Assembly (NCBI GenBank): GCA_964480125.1
Contig: CAYZNV010000001.1
Location: forward strand, 3,736 to 67,735
Direction of reading: 5' to 3'
DNA from: an uncultured archaeon
GTDB lineage: Archaea; Iainarchaeota; Iainarchaeia; Iainarchaeales; VGJJ01
DNA: 64,000 nucleotides
Shown: piece by piece, positions 4,347 through 63,246 of the stretch
Position numbering within the stretch: position 1 is the first letter of the stretch
Layout of the letters: every line of letters starts with the position of its first letter
Notes under the pieces: model-generated
What the model saw: only the letters and a program-made list of their open reading frames with translations
The model's database searches: none
What the model was told of the DNA's origin: nothing
Program-made: the position numbers and the translations under genes

Positions 4347-5252
4347 TTATTCCTCGACGCGCGCCAGGGAGTAAGTCCCCTGCGTGCCCAAGAGCTTCTT
4401 CATCTTCTCTTGCATCTCACTCAGTGCGCGCTCGGCGATCTTGAAATCAAACGAAGCAACTTTCAATTTGTATTTCCCCGCGCCCAAGTAGGAAATGGTA
4501 ATGACTGCATTCTTGGCAGACTTGGGAGACTCCAATAAGGCCTGCTTGATGATGTCCACGCCATTCGGAGCAGTAGAAGTAAGCGTGATCGTTCCGCGGA
4601 TGGCTTTCTCTTGCACCTTCACATTCTTCTGCACCACGTCCACGATAATGGGAATCCAACTCGGATTCAATCCCTCGATGTCATTCAGTGCAGCCTTTCC
4701 CTCAATGGAAATGGCCTCGAAAGCGCTTGAAACGGTTTCATATGCATTCGCCAGGGGATCGGCAATCTCCTTCCACCCTTGCTCCATCGTCTTCTCTTGC
4801 GTCTTGGCCATTTGTTCGATGAGCTTTTGGTTACGCTTCAATTGCTTATACTCTTCAATGCGCAAGCGCTGTTGTCTTTCTCCTACTTTTGTAAGAGAAA
4901 GATCAATCTGCAATTTTTCAAAATCAATTTTCTGCACCACTGCCGCGCGCATCTGGCCTTCTTTCACGTAATTGCGAATATTTTTGATCCACGAAGAAGC
5001 GACTTGGGAGATGTGCACGAACCCGGTTGCTCCAGAGTATTCGAGCAAGGAGCAAAAGACACCATAATCCAATACCTTGTCGACATTGACCACGACAATC
5101 TCCCCCACTTGGGGCCACTGCTTCACATTCTTGTTGCGAGAGTTAGCGGCAGGAGAAGGGTTTGCACCCGGAGCAGAACCCCCTGGACGAGGAGAAAAAT
5201 CTCTACGCGGTCCATGGAAAGCAGGACGCGGACGGGGATTTTCAAACGGCAT
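4347..5252 (-). CDS. eif2a: Translation initiation factor 2 alpha subunit (aIF2-alpha). The ATG-defined ORF is given; a GTG start at 5119 is more likely
   Basis: S1 domain VGEIVVVNVDKVLDYGVFCSLLEYSGATGFVHISQVASSWIKNIRNYVKEG matches aIF2-alpha. A 40-aa R/P-rich N-terminal extension with no internal Met is probably not translated. Confidence 0.8.
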   Translation of the reverse strand: MPFENPRPRPAFHGPRRDFSPRPGGSAPGANPSPAANSRNKNVKQWPQVGEIVVVNVDKVLDYGVFCSLLEYSGATGFVHISQVASSWIKNIRNYVKEGQMRAAVVQKIDFEKLQIDLSLTKVGERQQRLRIEEYKQLKRNQKLIEQMAKTQEKTMEQGWKEIADPLANAYETVSSAFEAISIEGKAALNDIEGLNPSWIPIIVDVVQKNVKVQEKAIRGTITLTSTAPNGVDIIKQALLESPKSAKNAVITISYLGAGKYKLKVASFDFKIAERALSEMQEKMKKLLGTQGTYSLARVEE

Positions 5253-24250: not shown

Positions 24251-25234
24251 ATGAGCGTCCACCTTACCTTTCTCGGAACCAGCTGTTCCACTCCCACTAA
24301 AGAACGCAATTTGAGCAGCGTGGCGCTAGGATTCCGCGGCGAATGGTTTCTCTTCGACACGCCAGAAGGAATCCAACAACAATTGATGCGCACGCATTTG
24401 TCACACTTTACGCTCGAGCACATCTTTCTTTCCCATTACCACGCGGATCATACGCTGGGGTTGCCGGGAATTATTGCAACAATGACCATCCATGAAAGAA
24501 AACAACCCCTCTATGTGTGGGGGCCACGCGGAATTGAAACAAAACTAAAACAAGGAATTGGATACGCGGACTTCTTTCCCGGATTTGAAGTCATCCCAAA
24601 AGAAATCGAGGAAGGCGTTTTGGTGGACACGGAAACGTACACGATTTCCGCCGTCAAGCTGAATCACTCGTGCCTGTGCTATGGATTTGTATTCGAAACA
24701 AAAGGAAAAAAAGGAACATTTTTGCGCGAGAAAGCGCTGAAACTCAAAATCCCCGAAGGACCACTGTGGGGAAAACTCCAGAAAGGAGAAACCATTTCAC
24801 ACGCGGGAAAAAAATACACCCCCGAAATGGTCATGGATTATACCCAGAGCAAGCGCGGCACCAAGATAGGATTCGTCATGGACACTTTTCCGCATAACCA
24901 CTACGTGGAATTCATGCAAGGAAGCGATGTGCTGATCCACGAAGCCTCTTTCTTGGAATCGGAAAAAGAACGCGCGTGGGACGTCAAACACTCCACTGCA
25001 AAAATGGCCGCAGAGATTGCTAAAAAGTTGGGAGTGAAGCAATTATTCTTAACGCACTTTTCTCCACGCTACCCGGATGGAAAGGATATGCTCGCAGAAG
25101 CAAAACCCATATTCAAAAACACCATTGCAGCACATGATTTGATGAAAGTGGAGTTAGAAGAAAGTTATTCAAACGAAAAAGAAAAGAAAACGAAAAACAT
25201 CTCCAAAGCAAAACCAAAGAATAAAAAGAAATGA
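24251..25234 (+). CDS. rnz: Ribonuclease Z (tRNA 3' endonuclease)
   Basis: MBL fold with SHYHADH motif. About 300-aa core. Lys-rich C-terminal tail. Confidence 0.85.
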   Translation: MSVHLTFLGTSCSTPTKERNLSSVALGFRGEWFLFDTPEGIQQQLMRTHLSHFTLEHIFLSHYHADHTLGLPGIIATMTIHERKQPLYVWGPRGIETKLKQGIGYADFFPGFEVIPKEIEEGVLVDTETYTISAVKLNHSCLCYGFVFETKGKKGTFLREKALKLKIPEGPLWGKLQKGETISHAGKKYTPEMVMDYTQSKRGTKIGFVMDTFPHNHYVEFMQGSDVLIHEASFLESEKERAWDVKHSTAKMAAEIAKKLGVKQLFLTHFSPRYPDGKDMLAEAKPIFKNTIAAHDLMKVELEESYSNEKEKKTKNISKAKPKNKKK

Positions 25235-26068: not shown

Positions 26069-26902
26069 ATGCGCATCGAATGGGTAATCGTCATCGGCAT
26101 GCTCCTCGTGATTCTCGCCGGCAGCGCGGCAGCACAAACCATCATCCCGCGCGTCACGGAAAATAGGGTCAGCTTCCATAATATCGACATCTATGTCAAC
26201 GAAGATGGCTCATCGCGCGTGATCGAACAATTCTTCTTCAGTTTTTTTGCGGACGAAGCCACGCAATTGGAAAAAGATTTTGAAGAAAATACGCCGAGCC
26301 TGTTCGAGTGGAAGAGAGACTATCCCTTCATCCACCCATATATTGGAATCGAAAGCCAAGCAGAGAACTTGGAATTTTTTTTACGCCAAACGGTTTCAGG
26401 ACAACCCACGCTCGAACTCTCATATAGTTATCCAACAGGACTCACGCAAAAAATAGCCACGGAAAACCAAGGAAGAACCGCACGATGGAAATTCTCGGAC
26501 TCAGCACTATTGAATTTCATCTCCGCAGGGAGCATCAGCATTGACGCAAAAACCCAAATCAAAATCCATTTGCCCAAAGGAGTAGTAGTCGATAAGCGAT
26601 TACTACAGCAAGGACTTTTGGATGGAAGCAACATCATTACTCTTACGAACTTCCAATCCAACGCACTAAATGTACAGTACACCATCCTCACTCCCATCGC
26701 CGACCCCATTGACACGAGTAAATTTATCTCAGATATTGTGGGAAGCCCATTATTCTTCTTCCTCGTCGTCGCGCTCGTGCTCGCAGGGATTTATGCATAC
26801 TTGAATCGCGAAGCACTATCCGAAAAAATAGAAAACTACATCATCGAGCACTCCGAGTTCAAAACGAATAAAGGACCGGAAGTCGACAATGACATCGAAT
26901 AG
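26069..26902 (+). CDS. Cell-surface protein: signal peptide plus C-terminal TM anchor
   Basis: MRIEWVIVIGMLLVILAGSAAAQ signal peptide. C-terminal LFFFLVVALVLAGIYAYLN anchor. TATA-like box near 25990. Confidence 0.5.
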   Translation: MRIEWVIVIGMLLVILAGSAAAQTIIPRVTENRVSFHNIDIYVNEDGSSRVIEQFFFSFFADEATQLEKDFEENTPSLFEWKRDYPFIHPYIGIESQAENLEFFLRQTVSGQPTLELSYSYPTGLTQKIATENQGRTARWKFSDSALLNFISAGSISIDAKTQIKIHLPKGVVVDKRLLQQGLLDGSNIITLTNFQSNALNVQYTILTPIADPIDTSKFISDIVGSPLFFFLVVALVLAGIYAYLNREALSEKIENYIIEHSEFKTNKGPEVDNDIE

Positions 26903-28162: not shown

Positions 28163-28242
28163 ATAACTCCAAAAGAAAGGTATCCTTCAAAAATAAGGAG
28201 GTTTAGAAAAAAACTTAATAGTCATGCATCCCTGTATCATGG

Positions 28243-28824
28243 ATGACTGAACAACAAAGGCTTGAGGGAATCGTACTCCATGTGACTACGACCAAAACAG
28301 GCAATGAAGAAACCCATTACAAAATTTCTCTGCGGATAGGCCATTTTATTCAAGGAAAACCATTCGTTACTTCTTCTGCCATTCGAAGAGCCATCCAAAA
28401 AACAAAACTACCTGAAAATAGGCCAATTGGGAGAATAGAATTCTACGCGGATCATGCCAGGAAAGTAATCGTATCCCATGAAGTTTTCCCCACCTCTTTA
28501 TTGTTCGGAAAAAAGAAAGAAGCATTCCAAGGAATAGGGCTCTCCACGCTGGTCGACCTCGCAGCAGAACGATTATTCAGAAATGTATTCCCTGATTATT
28601 TTATCCGTTCAACGGCAAACCCAAAAGAAGAACGAAGAAAGCAATTGCTCAAACGCCAACGTGAAATCGGAAAGCCCATCCCAATCCATGAAGCACACGC
28701 ACGCACAAAAGAACAAGTCGTTGCGCATTTCAGAAAAAACCTCGAAGCAATAAAGAAACTAAGATCCAGAGAAAAACGCAGAAACCGCTTGATGGCATCC
28801 ATGAACAGACGCAGACCCATTTAA
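28243..28824 (+). CDS. Hypothetical basic protein (weak GNAT-like QGIGLS motif)
   Basis: 193 aa. FQGIGLSTLVDLAAE resembles GNAT motif A. Arg/Lys-rich C-terminal tail. Confidence 0.35.
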   Translation: MTEQQRLEGIVLHVTTTKTGNEETHYKISLRIGHFIQGKPFVTSSAIRRAIQKTKLPENRPIGRIEFYADHARKVIVSHEVFPTSLLFGKKKEAFQGIGLSTLVDLAAERLFRNVFPDYFIRSTANPKEERRKQLLKRQREIGKPIPIHEAHARTKEQVVAHFRKNLEAIKKLRSREKRRNRLMASMNRRRPI

Positions 28825-28846
28825 ACTGTATGAGCAAGGATGAAGT

Positions 28847-29701
28847 ATGCCTTCATTCAAACAACAAATGCAAGCCAAACTCCATGCGGCGCTTTCTTCT
28901 GAGGAACGAGAAAAGATCCCAGCAGGATTTCAACGCTTAGGGCATATTGTGATATTGCGCTTGCATCCTTCCTTGGAAAGCAAAAAACAACTCATCGGAG
29001 AAGCCGCTCTTACGTGTGTTCCCGGAGCAAAAACCGCGTGCAATTATGCCGGAAAAATTTCCTCCGAATACCGAGAGCCCGTGATTGAATGGGTGGCGGG
29101 AGAACACAATACTATTGTCAACCACTTCGAACACGATTGTGTGTTTCGCTTTGATGTCACGAAATTGATGTGGTCGCAAGGCAACATGAATGAACGCAAA
29201 AGAATGTACTTGAATGTCAAAAAAGGAGAAGTCGTCGTGGATTTCTTCTGCGGATTAGGGTATTGGAGCATCCCCATTGCCAAGCACGCCTCTCCCGCGC
29301 ACGTGTATGCGATTGATGCGAATGAGAATGCAATCAATGCCATTCAAGAAAACAGAACCCTCAACAAAATACCAAAATCCGTCCTTACTATCATTCACGG
29401 GAATTGCGAAGTCGTGGCTCCCACGCTTGGAAAAATAGCCGATCGTGTAATCATGGGATATTTACCCGCGCCGCAATTTGCATTACCGGCCGCAATGCAT
29501 GTACTGAAGGATAGTGGAGGAATTGTGCACTACGAAGGAATGTGCCCGCAAGGAGAATATGAGACGCTCGTGGAAGAAGTAAGAAAAGTCGCCACCCAAT
29601 ATGGAAAACAAGTCGAATTGATTCACGCGCAAGAAGTCAAGAGCATGGCACCGAGAAAATATCACTATACTCTGGACTTGAAGATCAGCCCCATCAACTG
29701 A
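28847..29701 (+). CDS. Trm5/Taw2-family class I methyltransferase-fold tRNA-modification enzyme (wyosine pathway candidate)
   Basis: VVDFFCGLGYWSIPIAKHASPAHVYAIDANENAINAIQENRTLNKI...ADRVIMGYLP matches the Met-10+/Trm5/TYW2 fold. Confidence 0.65.
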   Translation: MPSFKQQMQAKLHAALSSEEREKIPAGFQRLGHIVILRLHPSLESKKQLIGEAALTCVPGAKTACNYAGKISSEYREPVIEWVAGEHNTIVNHFEHDCVFRFDVTKLMWSQGNMNERKRMYLNVKKGEVVVDFFCGLGYWSIPIAKHASPAHVYAIDANENAINAIQENRTLNKIPKSVLTIIHGNCEVVAPTLGKIADRVIMGYLPAPQFALPAAMHVLKDSGGIVHYEGMCPQGEYETLVEEVRKVATQYGKQVELIHAQEVKSMAPRKYHYTLDLKISPIN

Positions 29702-30382
29702 TCACCGAGGGACGAATCTCCAACCACGATAGGCAAAACCCGGCATGGGCGATGCATGCAACAACAACCCCATCTGACGCAGCTCACGCACGAGCCCAAA
29801 GAATTCGAGATATTCCTCTACCGCCTTATTACGGATAGAAGCCAATACCCGAATTCGATTGTAGATACGCATCAGCGATGAATCCTTTTTCCGCGCCAAT
29901 GCATATAATTTCCCACGCGCACGAATGCTGACATATCCCTTGACCCGTCCTCGCTCATCCAAAATCACCAAGTGACGGGTCTTGAGGGAAGGATTTTTCT
30001 CTGAGAACAAAAAATAATCAAAATAACGCCTCATATCCGAAGCCGAAAAAAAATCATGCGGCACCGGGTGCGGATGCGAATGGATTTCTGAACGAAACGA
30101 TGGAAGCGGTAGCCTACGCTCAACCGTATCAGCCGAACGATTCACCGAAGCAGGGATGAGCTCCCCCGGACGACCGCGCTCCTTGTACCATGACTCCTCA
30201 TGCGTCGCAATGCGTGGCGTCGACTCGATGACCGCTCGCGCCGAACGGCCGCGCGTGGGATGGCGATGAGCGAAATCACCAGGAGAAGGAGGAGCCATTG
30301 CGCACCCCTGCAAAAAAGAAGCCAATCCAGCTGAGCCAAGGATTTTCACGAATGCACGACGCGAGGGAAGGCGAGAGGGCAT
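29702..30382 (-). CDS. JAMM/MPN+-motif protein with a Tat-like and lipobox-like N-terminus
   Basis: EIHSHPHPVPHDFFSASD gives HxH-x7-S-x2-D. Upstream GELIPAS is paralogous to the JAMM gene at 62866-63246. N-terminus SRRAFVKILGSAGLASFLQGCA has twin-arginine and LQGC features. Start assumed at MPSRL; the ATG ORF extends to 30463. Confidence 0.4.
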   Translation of the reverse strand: MPSRLPSRRAFVKILGSAGLASFLQGCAMAPPSPGDFAHRHPTRGRSARAVIESTPRIATHEESWYKERGRPGELIPASVNRSADTVERRLPLPSFRSEIHSHPHPVPHDFFSASDMRRYFDYFLFSEKNPSLKTRHLVILDERGRVKGYVSIRARGKLYALARKKDSSLMRIYNRIRVLASIRNKAVEEYLEFFGLVRELRQMGLLLHASPMPGFAYRGWRFVPR

Positions 30383-30410
30383 GCCACTACCAGCGTTCGA
30401 AATAATATAA

Positions 30411-31214
30411 TCATTCTTCTTCCGCGCGCAACGTGAAAAGAAGCAATTCCTGTTCAATGACACACTTATTCCCTTTCACGTGCGCATAGAGGAAGGCCTT
30501 CACTTCATTCAATTGCACTGGATTCATTTTCTTGGACAAAAACGTATTAAGGAAAACTTCTGCCGCCCATTCAGGGGAACGGAACTCAAACTGCAAGGGA
30601 ATACGCTTCAGCTCGACTTTCCACCCTTGCTCCTGACACCACTTATGGAATTGAATGGCGAATTCTTTCGATTTAGAAGCAAAATCCAGCTTACCGATCT
30701 CCTCAAGCTTAGGAAGATCCTTTTCCCCGGAAGCAAAACCAATTACTACTGGCGCACCCGGATGCGTCACGCGAATAAGCTCTTTTACTATCTTTTCCCA
30801 ACGCGATTTTTCATGAGAGATGGCACCCATGCAATACGTGGACTCGGAAACCCCATCATCCACGGGAATGGAAACCAAAGGGCATTGGATGGTTTGGACT
30901 TTATCCTTCAAGCGCTTTTCCTTAATCAAATCCTGTACCACGCCAATGCACCAATTATTCTCATCCACTGCCGTAATCGTTTCTACGAGACGCACTAGGG
31001 GCAAAATCAATCTCCCGGGACCACAACCCACATCCATGACATGCTTTCCCTTCACTTGCGCAGCCTCAATCAATGCAGGAATCTCGCGCGTATCGCGATA
31101 GACTGAGGCTTTCACCAGCTCATCCCAGTAATCCCAATACTTCTCTTTCTTCTCCTGCTTCCGCTGCTCAGGGGACTTATTGACGCGGGGAGTGGAATAG
31201 TGATCACGAGCCAT
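30411..31214 (-). CDS. Class I SAM-dependent methyltransferase
   Basis: Motif I HVMDVGCGPGRLILPLV. Confidence 0.7.
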   Translation of the reverse strand: MARDHYSTPRVNKSPEQRKQEKKEKYWDYWDELVKASVYRDTREIPALIEAAQVKGKHVMDVGCGPGRLILPLVRLVETITAVDENNWCIGVVQDLIKEKRLKDKVQTIQCPLVSIPVDDGVSESTYCMGAISHEKSRWEKIVKELIRVTHPGAPVVIGFASGEKDLPKLEEIGKLDFASKSKEFAIQFHKWCQEQGWKVELKRIPLQFEFRSPEWAAEVFLNTFLSKKMNPVQLNEVKAFLYAHVKGNKCVIEQELLLFTLRAEEE

Positions 31215-31217
31215 CTA

Positions 31218-32189
31218 CTATGACCTCGCCACCATTTTGACCATCAAGCCATGCTGCATACGACCATTATGGGCGTCGATGGCCTCTTTAACCGCCGGGT
31301 TTAGAATTGAAATAGGAACGGGCCCATAATGCATTAACACTAATGGATCCACCCACTTTACTTTCCAACTCAGCCGAAAATCAAAATCATCGCTTCGAAT
31401 GGCATCAAAATTCCCATTCAATAATGCGAGTTTGGACTGTATCAATGGATTTTGAGCCAACCGCAATTTTTCCAACACCTCCTCATCACTCGTATGCAAA
31501 TCCGCGCGCGAAATAATCCCTAGCGCAACCGCTTCCTTTAGAGCATCCGCAAACACACGATAGCCCGTCGCAAAACGAGGGCTGCTCCAAATGAGATCAT
31601 CCATATGCAAATACTGCAACGCAAATTCGGCCGCGAGTTGAGGCGATGCAAAGACGAATTCCCCATCATGCACGCGCAAGTCTTCCCACCAACGTCTGAT
31701 AGTGGAGGCATCCAATGAGTAAAGAGAATCCCTGAACGTATAATCAATCCGATCCGCACAAAGCCTTGGAGAAGGACGCTCGAGCAAACCAAAGGATTTC
31801 TTTTCAACTACTTTCTTCCAATCAAAACCATATTTCTCATAAATGGAGGGAATTTCAGAATTGGCAATTAATTCACCCAAATGCGCATCATCAAAATTAT
31901 GATCATATTGAGGAAATACCAAATCCAACACATGCGAAAACGCTCCATGCCCCACATCATGCAACAAGCCCGCAGCCTGCTCCTCTAGGCTTGCCCCTGC
32001 GCCACGCAGCAAAAGCATCACGCCCACGCAATGAGTATAGCGCGTACCCGTTTGTTTTGGATCAATTAAATAATTAGCCCCCGCTTGGTGAATACCCTTC
32101 ATTCGCTGAAGAGGAGCGCTAACCAACAACTCTTCAATGAAAGGCTCATCCAGCTCAACCACTCCATAAATAGGATCTGCCAAGCGCAT
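31218..32189 (-). CDS. HD-domain phosphohydrolase
   Basis: THCVGVMLL...LLHDVGHGAFSH...D. Start chosen at MRLADPIYG; the track ORF extends 156 codons upstream without conserved features. Confidence 0.6.
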   Translation of the reverse strand: MRLADPIYGVVELDEPFIEELLVSAPLQRMKGIHQAGANYLIDPKQTGTRYTHCVGVMLLLRGAGASLEEQAAGLLHDVGHGAFSHVLDLVFPQYDHNFDDAHLGELIANSEIPSIYEKYGFDWKKVVEKKSFGLLERPSPRLCADRIDYTFRDSLYSLDASTIRRWWEDLRVHDGEFVFASPQLAAEFALQYLHMDDLIWSSPRFATGYRVFADALKEAVALGIISRADLHTSDEEVLEKLRLAQNPLIQSKLALLNGNFDAIRSDDFDFRLSWKVKWVDPLVLMHYGPVPISILNPAVKEAIDAHNGRMQHGLMVKMVARS

Positions 32190-32241: not shown

Positions 32242-32853
32242 ATGACACCCTTTGAGCAGCGCGCCGCTGCTGCGCGATTCCGCATGGTAAAAGAACGCCA
32301 CCAAAAGAGCCTCGAGACTGCTATCGCCGAGAAGAAAATAGACCCCCTCATGGTGCCCATTTCCAAATTCATCGCGGGAACAAAAGAATACTTCACCACT
32401 TCCACGTGTTCGGGGCGCATTACCCTAATGGACTTGGATTCAACCGAAATGAAACGCGAAGGCGCCTTTTTTAGAAAATGGCATCGAACCGTCACGGCAA
32501 AAGAAGTGTGGGAAGGAATTGAAGATGAAAGCAATACCGGGAATCTCTGGTTCAAGCAAGACGGATTAGTCATGCTGCTGGGAACCCATTCCATGGAGAA
32601 TGCCAAGCACGTATTGGATGTGGTACACAACTTGGGAATGAAACGCATCGGAATCAATCATTTTGAACCCGGAAAAATCCACATCGAAATATTTGGAACG
32701 CACCATATGAGCGTTCCCGTGAAGAGTGGGAAAAAAATACTCGTGGAAAAAGAATACGTCAAAGAACTCGTGAAATTAGCCAACAAGAAATGGAAAATGA
32801 ACCACCAAACACTCAAAAAACTCTGCGCAGCGTTGAAAAAAGAACTCAAATAG
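32242..32853 (+). CDS. taw3: tRNA wyosine-derivative methyltransferase Taw3 (TYW3 family)
   Basis: TSTCSGRI matches the TYW3 S[ST]CSGR signature. About 200 aa. Confidence 0.65.
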   Translation: MTPFEQRAAAARFRMVKERHQKSLETAIAEKKIDPLMVPISKFIAGTKEYFTTSTCSGRITLMDLDSTEMKREGAFFRKWHRTVTAKEVWEGIEDESNTGNLWFKQDGLVMLLGTHSMENAKHVLDVVHNLGMKRIGINHFEPGKIHIEIFGTHHMSVPVKSGKKILVEKEYVKELVKLANKKWKMNHQTLKKLCAALKKELK

Positions 32854-33983: not shown

Positions 33984-34014
33984 TTAAGGGCATTTCCTTG
34001 GATGCATCTAGTGT

Positions 34015-34503
34015 ATGGCCTTTACTTTCCGTCGCACCACGCGCGTTTCATCCAGCGTCGTTACTGCTAATCAGCCGGACGCCTGCCACGTGTTCATGAA
34101 TCACTTGCGCAGAGAATCCAGCGCCACGGGAAACCGACAGGGAATGGGAAAAGCATTGCGGGAAATCTATCGCATCGCGGGAAGACAGTCATTCTTCGAG
34201 CGCTTGCTGAATCGCAATCCCACTATTCGCGTGGGAAACGGAACTATTACCAAATCCCAACTCAAAAAAATAGAACATTTACTTGCGCGCGAGGGATTTG
34301 AAACCACCCTCATGCATATTTCAACGCCACACCCCATGCTCGCGGACTTATTCCAAGACAAAGAACAATACGCCGAGTTCGTTGCCCAAATACCCGAAAA
34401 GAAATGGCAACAAGTATTGGCGCCATTCGTTGCACATCCTAACCAGCAGCTGCGCGCGATGGCATTATTGGTATTCTTGCAGAATGCGCGCGGGACGAAA
34501 TAA
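34015..34503 (+). CDS. Hypothetical protein
   Basis: 162-aa ORF. Only weak evidence. Confidence 0.3.
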   Translation: MAFTFRRTTRVSSSVVTANQPDACHVFMNHLRRESSATGNRQGMGKALREIYRIAGRQSFFERLLNRNPTIRVGNGTITKSQLKKIEHLLAREGFETTLMHISTPHPMLADLFQDKEQYAEFVAQIPEKKWQQVLAPFVAHPNQQLRAMALLVFLQNARGTK

Positions 34504-34535
34504 TTTCAGTATTTACAATACAATCCAAAAAAGCT

Positions 34536-34955
34536 TTATGCTGCGGATTGACCAGTACAATGAAAAATAATTTCTGAATTTTCGACTACTACTGCAGTAT
34601 AACCAACTGTGCCCAACTCTTTATCTTTGAATTTACCTGCAAATAAAACTTGATTAATTTCCCCAAGATACGCACACCCACTTCCGCCACACTCATTACT
34701 GTAATGCTGAAATTTTTTATCATCATGGGATATAACTGACAAGAATGTTTCACTTCCATCTGCTAATATTTTGAACTCATCTGAATTAACTGAACTCAAA
34801 CTTGCCCCAACCCATTCTGTGCACATAAAATCAGTAGTACTAATGTTACTAGCAGGGGATGGCCCAATAGTCACTCCAAAAAACCAAAATAAAAATAATC
34901 CAATACTAAGAAACAAAACTATGATTGACCAGTTTAGTTTAGTTTTTTTAGTCAT
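34536..34955 (-). CDS. Small secreted/anchored Cys-containing protein
   Basis: N-terminal signal anchor IIVLFLSIGLFLFWFFGV. First gene of the secreted island. Confidence 0.45.
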   Translation of the reverse strand: MTKKTKLNWSIIVLFLSIGLFLFWFFGVTIGPSPASNISTTDFMCTEWVGASLSSVNSDEFKILADGSETFLSVISHDDKKFQHYSNECGGSGCAYLGEINQVLFAGKFKDKELGTVGYTAVVVENSEIIFHCTGQSAA

Positions 34956-35008
34956 GCCAATTCACTCCCAACTTGCAAGTGTATGAACTACTGTTAATAA
35001 ACGCAAAA

Positions 35009-35359
35009 TTATCGTAGTATTCCTTGCATTACACCAATAGGTTGAAGTGTGGCCAAATAAAATCCTAGAACAATTAACAAAAAAATGACGACCGGTTTAG
35101 CTTGGCTTTTTCCAAAAATCTTGCTAGAGATCTCAAATAAATTTAAGCCAAGTATCGAACCTAAGCCAATCATTAATCCGCCAATCATATTTACTACAAA
35201 ACTGTCCGCAGAAAAGAAAATTGTGGAATTAGGATTTTGAGCATCACTAATCGTTTGAGAGTACCACCCATAACTAGAATAAATGTAATATATACCAAGA
35301 AGTAAAAGAATGCCAAAAATTATTTTGTATGCAGTGCTATTCGCCATGTAAAACCCCAC
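35009..35359 (-). CDS. Small membrane protein
   Basis: 116 aa, 3 TM helices. The stop overlaps the start region of the metalloprotease gene. Confidence 0.4.
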   Translation of the reverse strand: MGFYMANSTAYKIIFGILLLLGIYYIYSSYGWYSQTISDAQNPNSTIFFSADSFVVNMIGGLMIGLGSILGLNLFEISSKIFGKSQAKPVVIFLLIVLGFYLATLQPIGVMQGILR

Positions 35360-38066
35360 CTAATTGACATATATAATTATTACTCATAATCCGACCAACT
35401 GGTTGCGGTAAAAGAGCATAGCTGGTTGAATAGTTTGAACTTGATACCTCCCCACCAGCATAACCCAAACTATATTGAATAGTAACTAAAAGATGGCTGA
35501 TATCATAAGATAGCACATTATTCTGATTTCTATCAACGATATTAACAACATCTACGTCTTGGAAATATGGAATTGCAAGAGCAAAGTTCCTGTCACTTGT
35601 AACAAGCGAATTGGCTTCAGGTAAAATGGAGCCATTACTATCATGAAGTGGCGCCCCTAAAATTCCAATTGGCGGGCTGTAGTTATAATCATACAAGAGG
35701 TTGCCATCACTTGATTTAAGTTGAATTGAATAATTTGCATCATCCGATTGAGGAATCTCTCCAGCAATACCAGGAACAAGCGATGCAGCCAACACAGTCA
35801 TTTGACCATCCTTTTGCATAATGGAAAGAACGAATGTGTAAAAATCCTTAATGAGTGGAGATGTAGGTGGATAAAAAGTAATGTCGGCTAGTAGCTCATT
35901 TTCATTTACTTGGCCAAATTCATGACGCGGATTGAAATGACTACCCATTAATGTATTGGTATCATACGCTCGATACCAAGAATCGAAATAACAGGGTGAA
36001 AAACAACCTGTGCCTGGAATTGAAGACCATTTTGAACAAACAGGCGATTCAGTACAATTCGCCAATGTACCTGCCGATACGTTCGTAGTGTTACCCGTCC
36101 AATATTCATCCCACAATCCGCCAAAACTATGACCAAACTCGTGACTAAAAACGCGTTGTAACTCATCTATATTATCTGCTATACCAAAACATCCAGCTGT
36201 TCCGCTTCCATTACAGTCTGGATTTGAAAGATTAACATCTACTGGAAAATTACATGTTCCTGCAAATTCACATCCTAATAGTACATAATTCATATGCGTT
36301 CCATTACTTGTAATATTTCGTAAAAAGTCAACTTCTGGGGGCAAACTATACGATCCAAAGCGCGGAGTTAATGAAAGAAGTGAAAATTCATTTCCAAAGG
36401 GACAAACTTCTTTGGCACGGCCATTTACTATTGCATTGTTAAAATGGCCAGAACCGTCTAATTGATAGGCATTGTATTCATCTACCATCCAGACGTTGAA
36501 TTTTGTTTTATTTGATTTAAATGGTTCAAAGGAAAATAGACCATTTTGATCGCTACTGTAATTAATAACATAATTTATTGCGTATTCGAATTGGTTTTTA
36601 TCTTCAAATCCACTTCCAATGAAAACCAAATCAATTTTTTGAGACGGTTCACCGTTATTGATTACTTGTCGACACAGAGTATTATCAGAAAATCTGGGAC
36701 TGTAATATCTGAAATTATCTAATGCGACAACGGAGTAAGTGGAAGTCACATAGATACTGCCGCTCTGGTTTGGAATGATAAAATTAATATCATTCTGGAC
36801 AGGCAAACTCGAGAGCAACCCCCCATAGATTTGAGTATCAGGCGACCCATCGCTGGGATCAAAATAAATCCTGAACGTACAATTAGCTGGATTAAAGTGA
36901 TTACAGCTCTTGTGAATAACGTCAAAGAACATTCTCCCACCATTCATTGTGTAACTTGAACGCAATGAATCGGAAGTCGTAGTACTATCCCCCATTGCCA
37001 CAAAAAAACGACCATCATCCACATACATATGATTGGGGATTTTTTCACGAACAAACTTAACAACGCCACTAGCCACCGTCCAACCACTAGGAGGAGTCTG
37101 AGTATACCCCAGCGTACCACCCATCGTGTAAACTCCGCCATACGTGTCCGGAATAACTCCCTCAAATGAACCGCTTAGAATTGCAGTATGACGATTCACA
37201 TGAACAGTATTTTGACCATACAAATCACGATTGGAAACTCCATCACACGAAACATAATAACTCACATCCCGAGAATCACCGCTAGTAATGTCCAACGAGA
37301 TATTGCCTGTACGATAGATTTCATTCCCAACATAAGAAGTAGAATGCGATAAATTATCTGTTTCATTGAACACCGTGCAAGTAGCCCCAGAGGGATAATT
37401 TACATCAATCGTAAAAGACTCTCCTGCTTCAATATGGTCTACAAAAGGACTAGAATCATTATCAACTAACAAGGGATAACGCTGAAAGCGAAAATTATCC
37501 AACGCGAAATTAACTAACGTAAATGTTCCTCCAGAACGAAATGCCGCAAGCGAGAATCGACCATCAACATTGGGAAAATTGACGTCGTATGTTTGTTTTG
37601 GGCTCGCATTGGTCAACACCAAGACAGTGAATGAATCTGCTTTATTCGCATCTACTGGATTGTAGTTGAGTCTCAGTTGAGAAGTACTATTCCAAAAGCT
37701 GCTATTTCCGATTCCATTCAAATCAAATAATATTCTTCCAGCCCTAAAGATATCGGGGTGAGATAATACGGTGAAGTTATTGCTGGTGGTACTCGTAGTC
37801 CCACACACAAAAATATTTCCGTCAGTTGGATAGCTCCCTGCATTGCGATCAAAATAACGAATGTGTGTGCCACCAACACTTTCACCATCAACCCAAGTCG
37901 AAACCGTTTCACAAAAAGGCTTATTGGAAACCAAACTCCCGCAGCTTTCAGCGCTAGCCGTTGAACATGACTCAAATGAACCATTTGTGATTAATGGATA
38001 TGGCTGGGCAAAAGCACTGGAAGAAAAAATAAAGATGAATAAGAAAAATAACCAATAACCCTTCAT
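35337..38066 (-). CDS. Large secreted zinc metalloprotease (HExxHxxGxxD type; M64/snapalysin-like motif)
   Basis: Signal peptide MKGYWLFFLFIFIFSSSAFAQ. VFSHEFGHSFGGLWDEY zinc-binding motif. 909 aa, rich in N-x-S/T sequons, with predicted beta-rich repeats. Confidence 0.7.
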   Translation of the reverse strand: MKGYWLFFLFIFIFSSSAFAQPYPLITNGSFESCSTASAESCGSLVSNKPFCETVSTWVDGESVGGTHIRYFDRNAGSYPTDGNIFVCGTTSTTSNNFTVLSHPDIFRAGRILFDLNGIGNSSFWNSTSQLRLNYNPVDANKADSFTVLVLTNASPKQTYDVNFPNVDGRFSLAAFRSGGTFTLVNFALDNFRFQRYPLLVDNDSSPFVDHIEAGESFTIDVNYPSGATCTVFNETDNLSHSTSYVGNEIYRTGNISLDITSGDSRDVSYYVSCDGVSNRDLYGQNTVHVNRHTAILSGSFEGVIPDTYGGVYTMGGTLGYTQTPPSGWTVASGVVKFVREKIPNHMYVDDGRFFVAMGDSTTTSDSLRSSYTMNGGRMFFDVIHKSCNHFNPANCTFRIYFDPSDGSPDTQIYGGLLSSLPVQNDINFIIPNQSGSIYVTSTYSVVALDNFRYYSPRFSDNTLCRQVINNGEPSQKIDLVFIGSGFEDKNQFEYAINYVINYSSDQNGLFSFEPFKSNKTKFNVWMVDEYNAYQLDGSGHFNNAIVNGRAKEVCPFGNEFSLLSLTPRFGSYSLPPEVDFLRNITSNGTHMNYVLLGCEFAGTCNFPVDVNLSNPDCNGSGTAGCFGIADNIDELQRVFSHEFGHSFGGLWDEYWTGNTTNVSAGTLANCTESPVCSKWSSIPGTGCFSPCYFDSWYRAYDTNTLMGSHFNPRHEFGQVNENELLADITFYPPTSPLIKDFYTFVLSIMQKDGQMTVLAASLVPGIAGEIPQSDDANYSIQLKSSDGNLLYDYNYSPPIGILGAPLHDSNGSILPEANSLVTSDRNFALAIPYFQDVDVVNIVDRNQNNVLSYDISHLLVTIQYSLGYAGGEVSSSNYSTSYALLPQPVGRIMSNNYICQLGGVLHGE

Positions 38067-48677: not shown

Positions 48678-48956
48678 ATGCACACGCTCGAAACCATCCT
48701 CTGCGCATTGGCACTCATGGCTTGTTTAGGATTACTCGCAGAACCCATTCTTTCCCACCAAGCAAAACTCACTCAAGCGAAAAATGCAATGGAATCACGC
48801 TATGAAGCACTCCAGTGCAGCGCGGAATGGGATTATGCACTCGCGTCATTTGTGCAAACAACAACAGGAGGATGTAGCGATTATTCCTATGCCCTGCACG
48901 CGAATGGAAACCCATTCACCACCCTAATGGGAGGAGACTCCAACCACTATGAATAG
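48678..48956 (+). CDS. Small hydrophobic-N-terminus protein, possibly pilin-like
   Basis: MHTLETILCALALMACLGLLA. Confidence 0.3.
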   Translation: MHTLETILCALALMACLGLLAEPILSHQAKLTQAKNAMESRYEALQCSAEWDYALASFVQTTTGGCSDYSYALHANGNPFTTLMGGDSNHYE

Positions 48957-49434
48957 TCACATTCACAAAAACGAACAACGAGGACAATTCCACGCGCTTG
49001 AAATTATCCTCGTATTCTTGGGATGGATGATATTACTTGCTGGAGTATGGAGTAGTAGCACCACCATCCTTCACCAGCAAGAAAATCAATTCCTCCAAGA
49101 AAAAGCATTCGCACGCGCCCAAGCCCAAGCACACACGCTTATCGAGCAGCATCATACGAATCCCTGGAACGGGTGTGCATTATTTGATCATGCAAAGAAA
49201 CGCACGCGCGGACATATTATCGAAAAAACATGCATGCAAGAACTTACCCCCACTACTCCCACGCAAGGCGTACGCGAAGTATATGTGCGAACGCAAACGG
49301 GAAAAGAAATATTCTTCGCCGTGTCCACCATATCGCCCACACAAGAAGAAAATTGCGCCGCAATTGAACGAATTATACGCATCCACGAAACGAATGAGAT
49401 TGCATTGCTGGGAGTGATCAGCTGTGCCGAATGA
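48949..49434 (+). CDS. Class III signal peptide (pilin-like) protein
   Basis: ...EQRGQFHALEIILVFLGWMILLAGV. Confidence 0.4.
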   Translation: MNSHIHKNEQRGQFHALEIILVFLGWMILLAGVWSSSTTILHQQENQFLQEKAFARAQAQAHTLIEQHHTNPWNGCALFDHAKKRTRGHIIEKTCMQELTPTTPTQGVREVYVRTQTGKEIFFAVSTISPTQEENCAAIERIIRIHETNEIALLGVISCAE

Positions 49435-49741
49435 AAAAGGAATATTCTGGGCATTCGAATTAGGAATAGGACTACTCATCCTGAGCACGCTCTTCATTGC
49501 ACAACCCACCCAAACGCCATCGCACGCAGCAGAGCTCGCAGGCCAATTATGCCTTGATTTGCAGGAAATGTGGATGCAAGGAGAAGAGCTTGAAGCTGTC
49601 ATCCAATCCTATTTCCCTGAAAAAAACATCACCATCTCACCAGGGGCAATTTCGAGCATGGAGAACAATGCCGCTATGTGCGAGGCCACGCGCGTGCGCA
49701 ATGGGATTGTGGAAAAACAATTCATTGCGATTGAATGGTAA
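49424..49741 (+). CDS. Class III signal peptide (pilin-like) protein
   Basis: MPNEKGIFWAFELGIGLLILSTLFIA. Confidence 0.4.
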   Translation: MPNEKGIFWAFELGIGLLILSTLFIAQPTQTPSHAAELAGQLCLDLQEMWMQGEELEAVIQSYFPEKNITISPGAISSMENNAAMCEATRVRNGIVEKQFIAIEW

Positions 49742-50129
49742 TCCCATTTTCTGCGCGGGTGATGATGAGAGAAGAAAATGAGGGATTCAGCGAAGTGGAA
49801 ATAGGAATAGGGCTTTTGGCGATGAATATTTTTGGAGCAAGAAATGAAGCGTGTGTCAATTGCAATTCCAAGTCATTCCCACTAACGGAAAACTCATTGC
49901 TTGCGCTGCTGCTCCATTTGTAGATTATTTTACTCCCAGGGGCTTGGAAGGAAAGAGAATGAAAAATTGATTCGAGCTGCTGCGCATGAGATTTCAATTC
50001 CAACACTTGCTCTTGCAACGCATACGCTTGCATGAGATTGGAAAACGCAGGCGTGAATAAGGCCAGCGCCCCCGCGAGCGCAGCCCAAATCAACAAACTC
50101 TCCAATGACACTTGGCCTTGATTATTCAT
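49722..50129 (-). CDS. Archaeal type IV pilin (DUF361/Pilin_N-like)
   Basis: MNNQGQVSLESLLIWAALAGALALF matches the archetypal [KQ]GQ[VI]S[LI]E class III signal peptide. Confidence 0.6.
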   Translation of the reverse strand: MNNQGQVSLESLLIWAALAGALALFTPAFSNLMQAYALQEQVLELKSHAQQLESIFHSLSFQAPGSKIIYKWSSSASNEFSVSGNDLELQLTHASFLAPKIFIAKSPIPISTSLNPSFSSLIITRAENGITIQSQ

Positions 50130-50131
50130 GG

Positions 50132-50308
50132 TTACTCGATCTGATCAATCTTCGCAAAAACATCCTGTGTTTTCTGCTCGAGCTTCTGCACGCCGCTCGC
50201 GGAAGAAGACTGGAGTTGCGTGACCAACAACAATACCACTGCCACTACTGCCGCCATCACAATAATCAACTCAATCGAAATCTGAGCCTTTGAGTCCAAT
50301 CTACGCAT
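50132..50308 (-). CDS. Small archaeal type IV pilin (58 aa)
   Basis: MRRLDSKAQISIELIIVMAAVVAVVLLLV. Start chosen at MRRLD. Confidence 0.55.
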   Translation of the reverse strand: MRRLDSKAQISIELIIVMAAVVAVVLLLVTQLQSSSASGVQKLEQKTQDVFAKIDQIE

Positions 50309-50433
50309 GCAACACCACTCCTTCCCACAAAGGAAATAATGGCGAAGTGCGCCCAAAAATGCTTTAAAGCTAGGGAAAATTTTTCAAAAAAGAAGCCATT
50401 TGGCGTTCCACTCAAGGGGGATTTATAGGGATT

Positions 50434-59467: not shown

Positions 59468-60880
59468 ATGTGTTCCATCATCGCAATCCATTCAACAAAA
59501 CCCATTCCAAGCAGCGAAATCATTCATTACGCCCAACGCCTGCGCCACCGCGGACCGGATGGGATTGGATTCGCAGGGGAAACACTCCAATGCTTTTCAC
59601 GCACCTATGAAAGCACAGCGCTAAAAAATCTCAGCACCACCTCGCCATGGTGGATCGCCAATGGGCTGCTGTCCCTCACGGGAAAAGGAAGCCCCCCCTA
59701 CACTCGCGCAACGCACAAAGGAAATATCACGCTAGCACACAATGGAGAAATATACAATTACCACGAGCTCGCCAAGAAATACTCCATCCCCATTTCAAAG
59801 GACAGCTCGGACGCGGAATTGCTATGCGCGCTCATCGCAAAATGGAGCGAAAAACAACCCATTGCTCAAATTGCCACACGACTCCAGCAGGAAGTACGTG
59901 GGAGTTATGCGCTGGCGATTCAATTCCAAGAAAAAACATATGCATTCCGCGATGCACTGGGAAAAAAACCCATTTGGGTAGCGGAAGAAAAAAATAAAAT
60001 CATATTTTCCTCAGAACCCATTCATCCACGTGCGTTTTTGCTTCCTCCCACTCAACTCGCAACCGCGCAAAAGGGAAAATTACACCTCACTCCAATTATT
60101 CCCCATAAAAAAATCACCTCACACTCACTCGCACAGGAATGGAAGGAAAGCATGGCGCTTCGCACGAATGGGAAGCAGCGCATCGCCGTCAGCTTTTCAG
60201 GAGGAATCGATTCCGCGCTTGTCGCTTATACTGCCAAGCAACTCGGAAAAAAAGTCATTGGAATCGGCGTCGGAATCAAGGGAAGCCATGATGAAATCCA
60301 AGCCCGAAAAGCCGCAAAAGAAATTGGAATCACACTCAAGTGGAAAACACTCACAACAAAAACAATCCACCAACTAGCCAAAGAAGTGACGCACATCCTG
60401 CAGACGCAAGACCAGCTCCAGCAGCGCATTGGCATTGTCAATGCGGCAACCGCCCACTATGCGCACCAACTGGGATTCCGCTTCTTGCTCTCTGGAACGG
60501 GAGCCGATGAACTCTTTTGTGGGTATGGGGAGTTTGAACGCATGCGAGGAGAAAAAAAAGAAATCAACAAATTACGAGAAAAACGCATGCACGAAATGTG
60601 GAAACAAAATCTTTGGAGAGAAGACGCATGCACTATGCGATTTGGCGTAGAGCTACGCACCCCCTACTTGGACCAATCATTCGTAGCTGCTGCGCTTGCA
60701 ATCCCTGCGTGGGAGAATTTAGAAGGAGAAAATGGAACGCTACGCAAGAACGCACTCCGCCGCCTCGCAATCACAGAGGGATTACCCAGAGAAATAGCGA
60801 TGCAACCCAAGAAAGCCATGCAATATGGAAGTGGTGTCGCAAAGGTAATGGAAAAAAACATTACGTCAAAACATGACTGA
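59468..60880 (+). CDS. asnB: Asparagine synthetase (glutamine-hydrolysing), AsnB family
   Basis: N-terminal Met-Cys (MCSIIAIHS) Ntn amidotransferase domain. SFSGGIDSALVA PP-loop. Confidence 0.8.
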   Translation: MCSIIAIHSTKPIPSSEIIHYAQRLRHRGPDGIGFAGETLQCFSRTYESTALKNLSTTSPWWIANGLLSLTGKGSPPYTRATHKGNITLAHNGEIYNYHELAKKYSIPISKDSSDAELLCALIAKWSEKQPIAQIATRLQQEVRGSYALAIQFQEKTYAFRDALGKKPIWVAEEKNKIIFSSEPIHPRAFLLPPTQLATAQKGKLHLTPIIPHKKITSHSLAQEWKESMALRTNGKQRIAVSFSGGIDSALVAYTAKQLGKKVIGIGVGIKGSHDEIQARKAAKEIGITLKWKTLTTKTIHQLAKEVTHILQTQDQLQQRIGIVNAATAHYAHQLGFRFLLSGTGADELFCGYGEFERMRGEKKEINKLREKRMHEMWKQNLWREDACTMRFGVELRTPYLDQSFVAAALAIPAWENLEGENGTLRKNALRRLAITEGLPREIAMQPKKAMQYGSGVAKVMEKNITSKHD

Positions 60881-61466
60881 CTTCCACAATAGAAGGGGAA
60901 GGAATATTATCACTCACCATCACACGGCATGAAGAAGAAGGCGCATCCCAACTCAGCACAATCAGCTTATTCAGTGTAAAAGGAAAAGCCAATTGATGCA
61001 ACCTTCCATTACTCGCTTGCTTGGAACACGTGAGCGAGACCAATACATCCTGCCCTGAGATGACATCCCCATACGGCGCACAAGCAGAACCACACGCACT
61101 ACTTTCAAGGGAAGGAGAAATAATGGCTTGGCAATTCACATCCAACTGCTGCTGGAGAAAGAGATTCACATCATTCCAGCGCAACCCCACTGCCGCGGAG
61201 AAATCCGCGCCCACAGGACCATTCGGACACGTTGCAGCGGAAAAAGGACCACTCATCTGCACATCCATCGCTTCCGCAATCGCATCCGAGGCAAATTGAG
61301 AATACGCCTGCCGTGCGAGTGACCACTCCTTGGAAAGAGACTGCTGCACAATCAACGAGCGCATCGACTCCTGCTCTGAAATCACTTGGCTCTGCTGCGC
61401 ATAGAAGATGGCAATCAACAGAATGACCGCCATCCCCACTACAACGGTAGAAAAAAAGCCCCTCAT
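60861..61466 (-). CDS. Class III signal peptide (pilin-like) protein
   Basis: MRGFFSTVVVGMAVILLIAIF. Cys-rich C-terminal domain. Confidence 0.4.
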   Translation of the reverse strand: MRGFFSTVVVGMAVILLIAIFYAQQSQVISEQESMRSLIVQQSLSKEWSLARQAYSQFASDAIAEAMDVQMSGPFSAATCPNGPVGADFSAAVGLRWNDVNLFLQQQLDVNCQAIISPSLESSACGSACAPYGDVISGQDVLVSLTCSKQASNGRLHQLAFPFTLNKLIVLSWDAPSSSCRVMVSDNIPSPSIVEVSHVLT

Positions 61467-61771
61467 GGCATCGCCTCGCAGGATTGTAATATAGACCAAC
61501 TACTTGGAAGAGAAGGAAGTTGGAGTGAAGTAGAAGAAACACGCTCGAATACAGAGGCACACGCAAACGCGCCCGCCGTGGAAGGAATCGGAGGAGTTGC
61601 TCCTCCCCCAAAGACACGCATCAACGCAGCATCCCGCGCATGCATCGAAAGCACGGCATCCGCGGAAGAAGGGCTCGAAGACTGCTGCAGGGCGAAACCA
61701 ATCAACACCAGCGCAGCCATAATCGCCGTGGCGGCAAACACCATGTCCAACGAAAAAATAAAACCCCGCAT
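61463..61771 (-). CDS. Class III signal peptide (pilin-like) protein
   Basis: MRGFIFSLDMVFAATAIMAALVLIG. Confidence 0.4.
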   Translation of the reverse strand: MRGFIFSLDMVFAATAIMAALVLIGFALQQSSSPSSADAVLSMHARDAALMRVFGGGATPPIPSTAGAFACASVFERVSSTSLQLPSLPSSWSILQSCEAMP

Positions 61772-62828: not shown

Positions 62829-62865
62829 GCATAGGTGCAAGGAAGAGCCGTATTTAATGCTGATT

Positions 62866-63246
62866 TCAGACGAGGCGCAAGGGAATACGCTTCCCCTTTG
62901 CGTTGAACGCGCGCACGCTAGATGGAGTATAAGGATACGCCAGGATGAGATGGAACTCCCCCATCCGAGAAAAAGTCATCAAATCCTGGGAAGAAGGATA
63001 GGGAGAAGGAGTGGGATGCGAGTGCACCGTACCCACAATCAATGGATCAAAGGGAATCAACTCCGAGTGGAGCGCAGCATAGTCTCTTCCTGAAATCGCG
63101 GGAATCACCACTACCTCTCCCACCACCAAACTATCCCTTTCGAGCGTGGAAAGAAGCGCAATAAATTCATTCGGGTGCGCACGCTTCGAGGCGTGCAACA
63201 AATCCTTCAACAGGATGGAGGAAATCATCCATTCTTTTTGGGGCAT
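62866..63246 (-). CDS. Minimal JAMM/MPN+ zinc metalloprotease (desampylase/deubiquitinase-like)
   Basis: GEVVVIPA... then VHSHPTPSPYPSSQD gives an exact HxH-x7-S-x2-D. About 126 aa, as in stand-alone archaeal JAMMs. Start set at MPQKEW to avoid a 165-nt overlap. Confidence 0.6.
   Translation of the reverse strand: MPQKEWMISSILLKDLLHASKRAHPNEFIALLSTLERDSLVVGEVVVIPAISGRDYAALHSELIPFDPLIVGTVHSHPTPSPYPSSQDLMTFSRMGEFHLILAYPYTPSSVRAFNAKGKRIPLRLV

Follow-up and report, generated by a model that had tools for sequence, protein, structure and literature searches.

A 64,000-nucleotide stretch of DNA from an uncultured archaeon of the Iainarchaeota (GenBank assembly GCA_964480125.1, contig CAYZNV010000001.1, positions 3,736 to 67,735), referred to here as the window, carries on its minus strand a gene for a small protein that combines a JAMM-type signature with an N-terminus resembling the signal of a lipoprotein exported by way of twin-arginine translocation (Tat). 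This JAB-like gene abuts TYW2 tail-to-tail and has no downstream partner gene. The initial annotation, made from the sequence alone, had drawn attention to the open reading frame (ORF) and to the Tat-motif and lipobox features of its N-terminal string SRRAFVKILGSAGLASFLQGCA. All of these are present, and relatives retain the twin-arginine motif. This confirms the observation; the interpretation put on it is supported in part.

Coding sequence, start codon and locus

The minus-strand ORF at 29702-30463 encodes 253 amino acids from a GTG start, which overlaps the 3' end of the preceding methyltransferase gene (30411-31214). The first ATG, at 30382, gives a 226 amino acid protein beginning MPSRLPSRRAFVKILGSAGLASFLQGCAMAPP (MPSRLPSRRAF...). 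The public gene call, P0001, begins further downstream, at ATG 30298 (Met29), and consists of 198 amino acids starting MAPPSPG. A start at this position strips off the entire Tat-like region. The DNA of the gene is 100% identical across four independent metagenome assemblies.

Of the 34 confident genes in the window, 24 have an AT-rich TATA-like octamer at -36 to -24, a feature that precedes 17.7% of all ATGs. Shine-Dalgarno-like strings occur in few of the corresponding 34 stretches upstream, as read by eye rather than counted. The frequency of TATA-like boxes near ATGs and the scarcity of Shine-Dalgarno-like strings suggest that the transcriptome of the source genome is largely leaderless. 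Boxes of the TTTATAA or TTATAA type are seen, for example, upstream of 4347-5252, 24251-25234, 26069-26902 and 32242-32853. Many of the window proteins begin with Met-Pro.

A TATA-like box overlapping the stop codon of the upstream methyltransferase gene precedes ATG 30382 (Table 1). There is no such box before ATG 30298, which has instead the Shine-Dalgarno-like string AGGGGTG 4 nucleotides upstream; it is probably this string that drew the gene caller to the site. TATA-like boxes also precede the long starts of the positional orthologue, P0002, and of four other relatives, and the gene call of P0002, which is syntenic, takes in its RR motif. In view of the spacing of the box and of the P0002 call, the 226 amino acid form is very probably the real product, and Met29 is probably not the true start. 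A mis-called start had been raised initially as an explanation for the Tat-like region. There does appear to be a mis-call, but in the opposite sense: the public call lies too far downstream, and the Tat-bearing start does not appear to be an artefact. The start in orthologues, which had been put forward as a check on this, lies upstream of the RR motif in P0002.

Table 1. Features of the JAB-like gene and its comparator in the window
Feature	Positions	Strand	Comment
Coding sequence of the JAB/MPN-like protein	29702..30382	-	226 amino acids; ATG 30380-30382, stop codon 29702-29704
TATA-like box ATTATATTATTT (coding strand), putative promoter of a leaderless transcript	30400..30411	-	-29 to -18 from ATG 30382
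Predicted signal peptide, residues 1-26	30305..30382	-	n-region MPSRLPSRR, h-region ILGSAGLASFLQG, c-region ending in lipobox-like L-Q-G
Twin-arginine motif S7-R8-R9-A10-F11-V12-K13	30344..30364	-	fits the S-R-R-x-F-L-K consensus
Lipobox-like L24-Q25-G26-C27, Cys27 a candidate lipidation/cleavage site	30302..30313	-	PROSITE-style lipoprotein rule
Internal ATG (Met29), start of the public 198 amino acid call	30296..30298	-	without TATA-like box; relatives are called with the RR region
MPN/JAB-like core domain, residues ~44-155	29918..30253	-	
JAMM-type signature E62 ... H101-S-H103 ... S113-A-S-D116	30035..30199	-	near-invariant in 80 relatives
Family-specific C-terminal extension, residues ~157-226	29705..29914	-	conserved GL..R.TPMPGY motif
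Variable cassette (promoter and gene) between the TYW2 and methyltransferase stop codons	29696..30410	.	hyper-divergent or absent in related genomes
JAMM of the canonical cytoplasmic type, orthologue of AfJAMM; comparator used in the initial annotation	62866..63246	-	PF14464 E 2.6e-13; AfJAMM 1OI0/1R5X E 2e-29

The genes around the JAB-like gene are TYW2 (28847-29701), the class I methyltransferase, an HD protein (~31218-32189) and TYW3 (32242-32853). The TYW2 protein is 94% identical to the copy in CP064981.1, a complete 'Candidatus Iainarchaeum archaeon' genome of 1.05 Mb. Together with the 81% identity of the second JAMM to a protein of that organism, this assigns the window to a DPANN (Iainarchaeota) archaeon. 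In CP064981.1 the TYW2 and methyltransferase stop codons are only 4 nucleotides apart and the whole cassette of promoter and gene is absent. In comparison with the related genome L005, the flanks have 77-82% nucleotide identity and nothing aligns over 29696-30401, with the alignment breaking exactly at the gene borders. In this Iainarchaeum genome, twelve neighbouring proteins are 75-93% identical to their counterparts in the window, against 35% for the JAB-like protein. No flanking repeats were seen at the cassette junctions. On these sequence comparisons, the JAB-like gene is a dispensable, very fast-diverging cassette that keeps its signal, fold and catalytic residues.

The initial annotation had placed the gene within a wyosine-pathway neighbourhood. 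The TYW2, TYW3, methyltransferase and HD genes are indeed there, but a functional link to wyosine biosynthesis was rejected, as the JAB-like gene is missing at the same junction in CP064981.1. Other members of the family adjoin AlaRS, Nop5/fibrillarin or SOD/TldD, and no conserved gene neighbourhood of the family beyond the close orthologue was found in the loci compared. Because the flanks align without the gene, CP064981.1 lacks it and other members sit elsewhere, the association with wyosine genes is incidental.

A second hypervariable accessory gene is located on the other side of TYW2. ORF193 (28243-28824, plus strand) encodes 193 amino acids without a Pfam match and shares 33-35% identity with the genes at the same position in L005 (181 amino acids) and L012 (170 amino acids), where the neighbouring proteins are 75-95% identical. 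A 680-nucleotide segment, 28164-28845, is missing from L001 and L002, in assemblies that are otherwise 99.5-100% identical. The JAB-like gene and ORF193 were considered as a toxin-immunity pair, and this was rejected because L001 has the JAB-like gene without ORF193 and L012 shows the reverse.

JAMM-type signature, predicted fold and family

The core GELIPAS...IHSHPHPVPHDFFSASD is present in the ORF. Among six-frame ORFs of at least 100 amino acids, the pattern H[ST]HP-x(5-10)-S-x2-D occurs in just two in the window, the JAB-like ORF and that at 62866-63246. The spacer between the HxH and the serine is 9 residues, where the canonical length is 7, which bears out the two-residue shift of the HxH register noticed initially. 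Since spacers in the family range mostly from 7 to 31 residues, the shift sits in a loop that tolerates insertions.

When 1.8 billion cluster representatives were searched exhaustively with phmmer, 81 proteins were obtained at E≤1e-3, and 21 of them at E≤1e-10. The family alignment, A1, contains 80 sequences, and the family hidden Markov model (HMM) scores the JAB-like protein at 186.8 bits. A word-indexed homologue search returned the protein itself only, or two proteins when the family profile was used, and a single-protein search of GTDB genomes and viral contigs gave no match. The residues E53, E62, R82, H101, H103, S113, D116, H137 and G149 are at least 90% conserved in A1, and both of its subfamilies keep them. 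Those of the JAMM type (E62, H101, H103, S113 and D116) are at least 94% conserved in the 80 relatives, and the catalytic-type residues are conserved equally in the long and short subfamilies described below. No paralogues were found with the family HMM in the window or in any of the loci compared. The family is undescribed, and the five members for which the source or context was examined are all archaeal.

The AlphaFold2 model made with A1 has a mean predicted local distance difference test score (pLDDT) of 88.3 and a predicted template modelling score (pTM) of 0.80; from the single sequence the pLDDT is 46. The first 30-40 residues are disordered, the pLDDT is 83 at residues 41-50 and it is at least 90 from residue 51 onwards. 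Foldseek comparison with the PDB returned Jab1/MPN domains almost exclusively among the top 30 or more matches, including the Prp8 MPN domain, Rpn8/Rpn11, NPL4, CSN5 and BRCC36, with modest scores and a best E of 4e-4. In the model H101 and H103 end the strand 96-103, S113 and D116 open the helix 114-125, and E62 precedes the strand 64-68. As modelled, this placement is the arrangement of JAMM active sites. The C-terminal extension has helices at 157-164, 168-181 and 188-203, followed by three short strands. The domain is very basic, with an isoelectric point (pI) of ~10.7, and the pI of the core is ~10.

Profile searches speak against this assignment. The JAB-like protein has no Pfam, NCBIfam, PADLOC or PHROG match; it does not match PF14464 at E≤1, and no curated JAB HMM (PF14464, PF01398) is matched above threshold. 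Alignment to PF14464 had been proposed initially as a check, and in the literal sense there is no JAMM HMM hit. Sub-threshold matches occur in relatives, to Prok-JAB in 5 of 80 (best PF14464 E 0.0036, below threshold), to DUF4329 in 2 of 80 (E ~0.09) and to PADLOC JAB models in ~5 of 80. The family profile searched against PDB sequences found no JAB domain and only chance matches to CBS domains. The JAMM assignment thus rests on fold and motif, not on HMM membership. With the model and the motif taken together, the protein is likely to be a member of the JAB/MPN+ superfamily, and probably an active one.

The gene at 62866-63246, whose product and a protein of 'Candidatus Iainarchaeum archaeon' share 81% identity, had been thought to be a paralogue of the JAB-like gene. 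That relationship does not hold, as the family HMM of the JAB-like protein does not match this AfJAMM orthologue at E≤1. BLASTP aligns the two products over 27 residues at E=0.015, and hhalign aligns the family with the AfJAMM-like family over 45 columns around the motif (E=1.8e-5, probability 78%), pairing IPAS with IPAI. The shared core GE[LV][IV].[IP]A[SI] proposed initially is therefore recovered by profile alignment, but only with a one-residue gap (GELI-PAS against GEVVVIPAIS). On this sequence evidence the two JAMM-type genes are related at the superfamily level only.

The comparator gene adjoins runs of small proteins with pilin-like N-termini, such as MMASQRGQLFSLDIILG..., in a set of features at 60861-62840 and 48678-50356 of the window and at 1407-2537 of L018. 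One of the pilin-like proteins has a weak Class_IIIsignal match, and a prepilin peptidase (Peptidase_A24/Arc_PepC) is encoded a few kb past the end of the window. The pilin-like genes and the prepilin peptidase look like archaeal type IV pilus-like gene clusters.

N-terminal signal and predicted location

The published consensus of Tat signals is S-R-R-x-F-L-K (PMC7317946). In the JAB-like protein the twin-arginine motif is followed by 13 uncharged residues, I14 to G26, of which 3 are glycine. Mean Kyte-Doolittle hydropathy is 1.35 over the first 15 uncharged residues and 0.82 over the full uncharged stretch of 22, half of which is Gly, Ala, Ser or Thr. No other N-terminus in the window has both a consensus twin-arginine motif and an uncharged stretch. 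A PROSITE-style lipoprotein rule, allowing Gln at -2, fits only 1 of the 419 Met-initiated N-termini of the window, that of the JAB-like protein. The AlphaFold2 pLDDT is below 55 for residues 1-30, as expected of a signal peptide. Because the n-region is strongly basic and the C-terminal flank of the hydrophobic stretch is not, the catalytic domain should, by the positive-inside rule, face outward under either translocon.

A hydrophobic N-terminal extension is present in 33 of the 80 family members, the long forms, and a rough neighbour-joining tree mostly parts these from the short forms. The motif logo of the 27 scorable long forms is [IVL][ST]RRx[FL][LVI]K. The RR is found in all 27, with S/T at -1 in 22, F/L at +3 in 21, L/V/I at +4 in 23 and K at +5 in 17, and in 26 of them the h-region is 45-72% Gly, Ala, Ser and Thr, as expected for Tat. 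Four long forms have no scorable RR. Three of these, P0007, P0028 and P0080, start within the hydrophobic stretch; in P0061, the fourth, a second hydrophobic segment preceded by RR lies downstream. The starts of all four may be mis-called like that of P0001. A [GASC]-C dipeptide follows the RR motif in 14 long forms, in a test that does not fix its position. When the sequences are read, the h-region of about 10 of these 14 is seen to end in L-x-[SGA]-C, and the -2 residue is often polar. Matches to TAT_signal HMMs, below or near threshold, occur in 13 of 80 relatives for the Pfam model and in 11 of 80 for TIGR01409.

The favoured explanation, held with moderate confidence, is that the gene encodes a Tat-exported, membrane-tethered and divergent JAB/MPN+ (JAMM-type) metal hydrolase, made as a 226 amino acid precursor. 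The precursor would fold and take up metal in the cytoplasm, by analogy Zn2+, through H101, H103 and D116, and the folded protein would be exported through the Tat pathway. It would then be cleaved and lipid-modified at Cys27, or tethered by an uncleaved signal helix. On the outer face of the membrane E62 would act as general base and activate the metal-bound water, with S113 as an oxyanion helper stabilising the intermediate, and an amide bond, peptide or isopeptide, would be hydrolysed outside the cell. By analogy with the reactions of characterised JAMM enzymes, the most likely candidate substrates are peptide or isopeptide bonds in material of the cell envelope or of a host surface. A nucleic-acid substrate is also conceivable, since the pI is high, the short forms have basic tails and the Tox-JAB domains set a precedent (PMC3482391). 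Use of the Tat pathway is plausible for a metal-dependent domain, and for one that is very basic with arginines near the mature N-terminus, which would disfavour Sec.

There are several points that weigh against this explanation. The JAB-like protein itself does not match a TAT_signal HMM (PF10518, TIGR01409) at E≤1. Neither TatA nor TatC was found among the 10 membrane ORFs of the window that were tested, nor was either called in the flanks, with ~80 kb examined in all. At the lipobox, positions -3, -1 and +1 fit [LVI][ASTVI][GAS]C, but Gln at -2 is outside this consensus as quoted in PMC12462473, and a candidate cysteine is found in a minority of the long forms, ~10-14 of 33 according to the criterion used. 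In non-halophilic archaea, Sec is reported to be the main route of lipoprotein export (PMC12462473). The other 47 of the 80 relatives are short (~185-210 amino acids) and signal-less, and a tail rich in Lys and Arg stands immediately before their core. In two short-form loci there is no upstream room for a signal, the open frame beginning 6 codons (L008) or 8 codons (L010) before the called ATG. As 47 of 80 relatives have no signal, the chemistry of the family does not require an extracytoplasmic location.

Some of the same points are shared by a less likely alternative, in which the enzyme and its outward topology are as described and the N-terminus is a Sec signal peptide or an uncleaved N-in/C-out anchor, with Cys27 unlipidated. 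The lack of Tat components in the region examined, the atypical -2 residue and the absence of the cysteine from most long forms would all be accounted for. The prediction for non-halophilic archaea is that Sec serves in most cases (PMC12462473, PMC6098224), and Tat and Sec signals overlap functionally (PMC7317946). What this alternative leaves unexplained is the invariant RR, with the full S/T-R-R-x-F-L-K consensus kept in 27 highly divergent relatives, since Sec needs none of it. The Gly/Ala-rich, moderately hydrophobic h-regions also argue for Tat, and an Arg-rich mature N-terminus (R40, R44, R46 and R49) would disfavour Sec.

A role as a Tox-JAB-type effector or toxin, secreted or at the surface, is improbable; its target would be nucleic acids or a second organism, either a host or a competitor, and not the envelope of the cell itself. 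Tox-JAB-1 and Tox-JAB-2 were introduced in 2012 as secreted toxin modules and suggested to be nucleases (Zhang et al., PMC3482391). They are likewise divergent JAB domains with E, H[ST]H, S and D that diversify fast, and Tox-JAB-2 (DUF4329, PF14220), which is delivered outside the cell, occurs also in large DNA viruses and phages (PMC3482391). For the JAB-like family, the best viral-model matches are to uncharacterised large-DNA-virus proteins and siphovirus minor capsid proteins, so that both have relatives or structural neighbours in such viruses. The two weak DUF4329 matches among relatives, the core pI of ~10 and the hypervariable, dispensable cassette, as conflict genes often are, also favour an effector. 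The JAB-like protein itself, however, does not match DUF4329, and the matches in relatives amount to 2 of 80 at E ~0.09. Tox-JAB domains form the C-terminal part of large delivery proteins, of the RHS kind or others, are encoded next to immunity genes and are exported by bacterial type II, VI or VII secretion systems (PMC3482391), whereas the JAB-like protein is archaeal, stands alone without fusion to RHS or other delivery domains, and has a Tat signal and a predicted membrane tether. There is no adjacent small immunity-like gene, with TYW2 abutting tail-to-tail; a toxin meant for release would not be expected to carry a lipid or membrane tether; and there are no close relatives on viral contigs.

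That the public annotation is right, with a 198 amino acid cytoplasmic protein starting at Met29 and the signal-like string an untranslated chance resemblance, is very doubtful. The choice of the gene caller, the AGGGGTG string before ATG 30298 and the existence of 47 genuinely signal-less relatives are in its favour. Against these, the genome seems largely leaderless and the TATA-like box precedes ATG 30382, not ATG 30298; the upstream 28 codons are in frame and are the sole sequence of the window meeting both the RR and the lipobox rules; and the motif is likewise encoded by the orthologue and by 26 further relatives that were scored. A decaying gene, pseudogene or spurious ORF, raised initially as a degenerate gene, is scarcely credible: the lack of a database family, the 35% identity to the positional orthologue beside 75-93% for the neighbours and the absence from a related genome are set against an intact ORF, identical in all four samples, with all family-invariant residues, a confident fold prediction and an intact promoter.

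Surroundings, known systems and significance

Further differences between the genomes were seen beyond the cassette. The HD-domain gene (31218-32189, minus strand) is present in L005 with 82% identity and absent from CP064981.1, in which the methyltransferase and TYW3 are ~80 nucleotides apart. CP064981.1 has ~1.85 kb of extra sequence between TYW3 and the ornithine/diaminopimelate decarboxylase gene, containing a ParA/CobQ-like ORF and an ORF of 283 amino acids. The G+C content of 34001-38000 is 0.39, against ~0.48 elsewhere. This region carries an ORF of 909 amino acids with a signal-peptide-like N-terminus (35337-38066) and several small membrane ORFs, and it may be a foreign or surface-protein island. 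In two unrelated loci a member of the JAB-like family is directly preceded, on the same strand, by an ORF without a Pfam match. These pairs are 4407-4982 with 5001-5588 in L008, which follows Nop5 and fibrillarin, and 282-962 with 1027-1818 in L006. The preceding ORFs, of 191 and 226 amino acids respectively, are not matched by the family HMM.

Known members of the JAMM group are cytoplasmic enzymes that act on ubiquitin-like proteins such as the small archaeal modifier proteins (SAMPs). Extracytoplasmic JAB domains have, to our knowledge, been proposed until now only as toxin modules in the polymorphic toxins of bacteria. The view taken initially, that an exported, lipid-anchored JAMM would be novel, therefore needs qualification: secreted Tox-JAB-1 and Tox-JAB-2 domains were predicted in 2012 (PMC3482391). 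With the PF14464 enzymes (AfJAMM 1R5X/1OI0, Pyrococcus furiosus JAMM1 5LD9 and the product of 62866-63246), the JAB-like protein shares the MPN-like alpha/beta fold, a Glu ~40 residues before the HxH, the HxH at a strand end and the SxxD at the start of the next helix. Unlike them, the family has invariant E53, R82 and H137 and a 70-residue C-terminal helical/beta extension, and the protein has a 9-residue spacer, a pI of ~10.7, a twin-arginine signal and no HMM membership. As PF14464 does not take them in by HMM criteria, these proteins would make up a family of their own, new to the JAB/MPN+ superfamily and unusual in its predicted location.

The zinc-dependent cell-wall amidases AmiA and AmiC of Escherichia coli are Tat-exported after folding in the cytoplasm, and are soluble periplasmic enzymes acting on murein. 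The likeness to these is a functional analogy only, as Tat-exported metal-dependent amide hydrolases; the fold is unrelated (Amidase_3), and AmiA and AmiC are not lipid-anchored. The signal itself has the architecture of the Haloferax volcanii Tat lipoproteins HVO_B0139 and HVO_1705, with a basic twin-arginine n-region, a moderately hydrophobic h-region and a terminal lipobox cysteine, in the JAB-like protein a candidate one (PMC12462473, PMC2945643). Haloarchaeal Tat lipoproteins are lipidated through AliA/AliB (PMC12462473, PMC2945643), and lipoproteins and the lipidation enzyme AliA are reported to be prevalent in DPANN archaea, AliA with gaps (PMC12462473). The JAB-like protein differs from the haloarchaeal proteins in belonging to a DPANN/Iainarchaeota lineage for which Sec is predicted to be dominant, in the Gln at -2, and in its passenger, which is a JAB-fold enzyme rather than a substrate-binding protein or redox enzyme.

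A broader reading can be put forward tentatively. The proteins may represent an unrecognised DPANN family of JAB-fold metal hydrolases. One branch would have gained a Tat signal and thereby been relocated to the surface of the cell, whether or not a lipid anchor was added, and would evolve as a hypervariable, dispensable cassette because it acts at the interface between symbiont and host or virus. Such enzymes could cut isopeptide or peptide cross-links of the host envelope, or degrade extracellular nucleic acid for scavenging. If this is true, the Tat-bearing branch, with the JAB-like protein of the window in it, would be the first stand-alone extracytoplasmic JAMM-type enzymes, and would be evidence for working Tat export and Tat lipoproteins in a non-halophilic DPANN lineage.

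The case also illustrates a systematic annotation error, in that gene callers favouring Shine-Dalgarno strings can remove signal peptides in largely leaderless genomes. Neither Pfam nor NCBIfam has a model for the 81 cluster representatives, and a new family could be set up for them. DPANN archaea are believed to need contact with other cells, and the greater part of their surface proteins lacks annotation. The JAB-like protein is a concrete candidate for a surface enzyme of such an archaeon. As a predicted JAB-fold enzyme that stands alone, with a consensus Tat signal and what may be a lipid anchor, it would widen the range of places in which JAMM chemistry is used, and would imply that Tat export, and possibly Tat lipoproteins, operate in the Iainarchaeota lineage.

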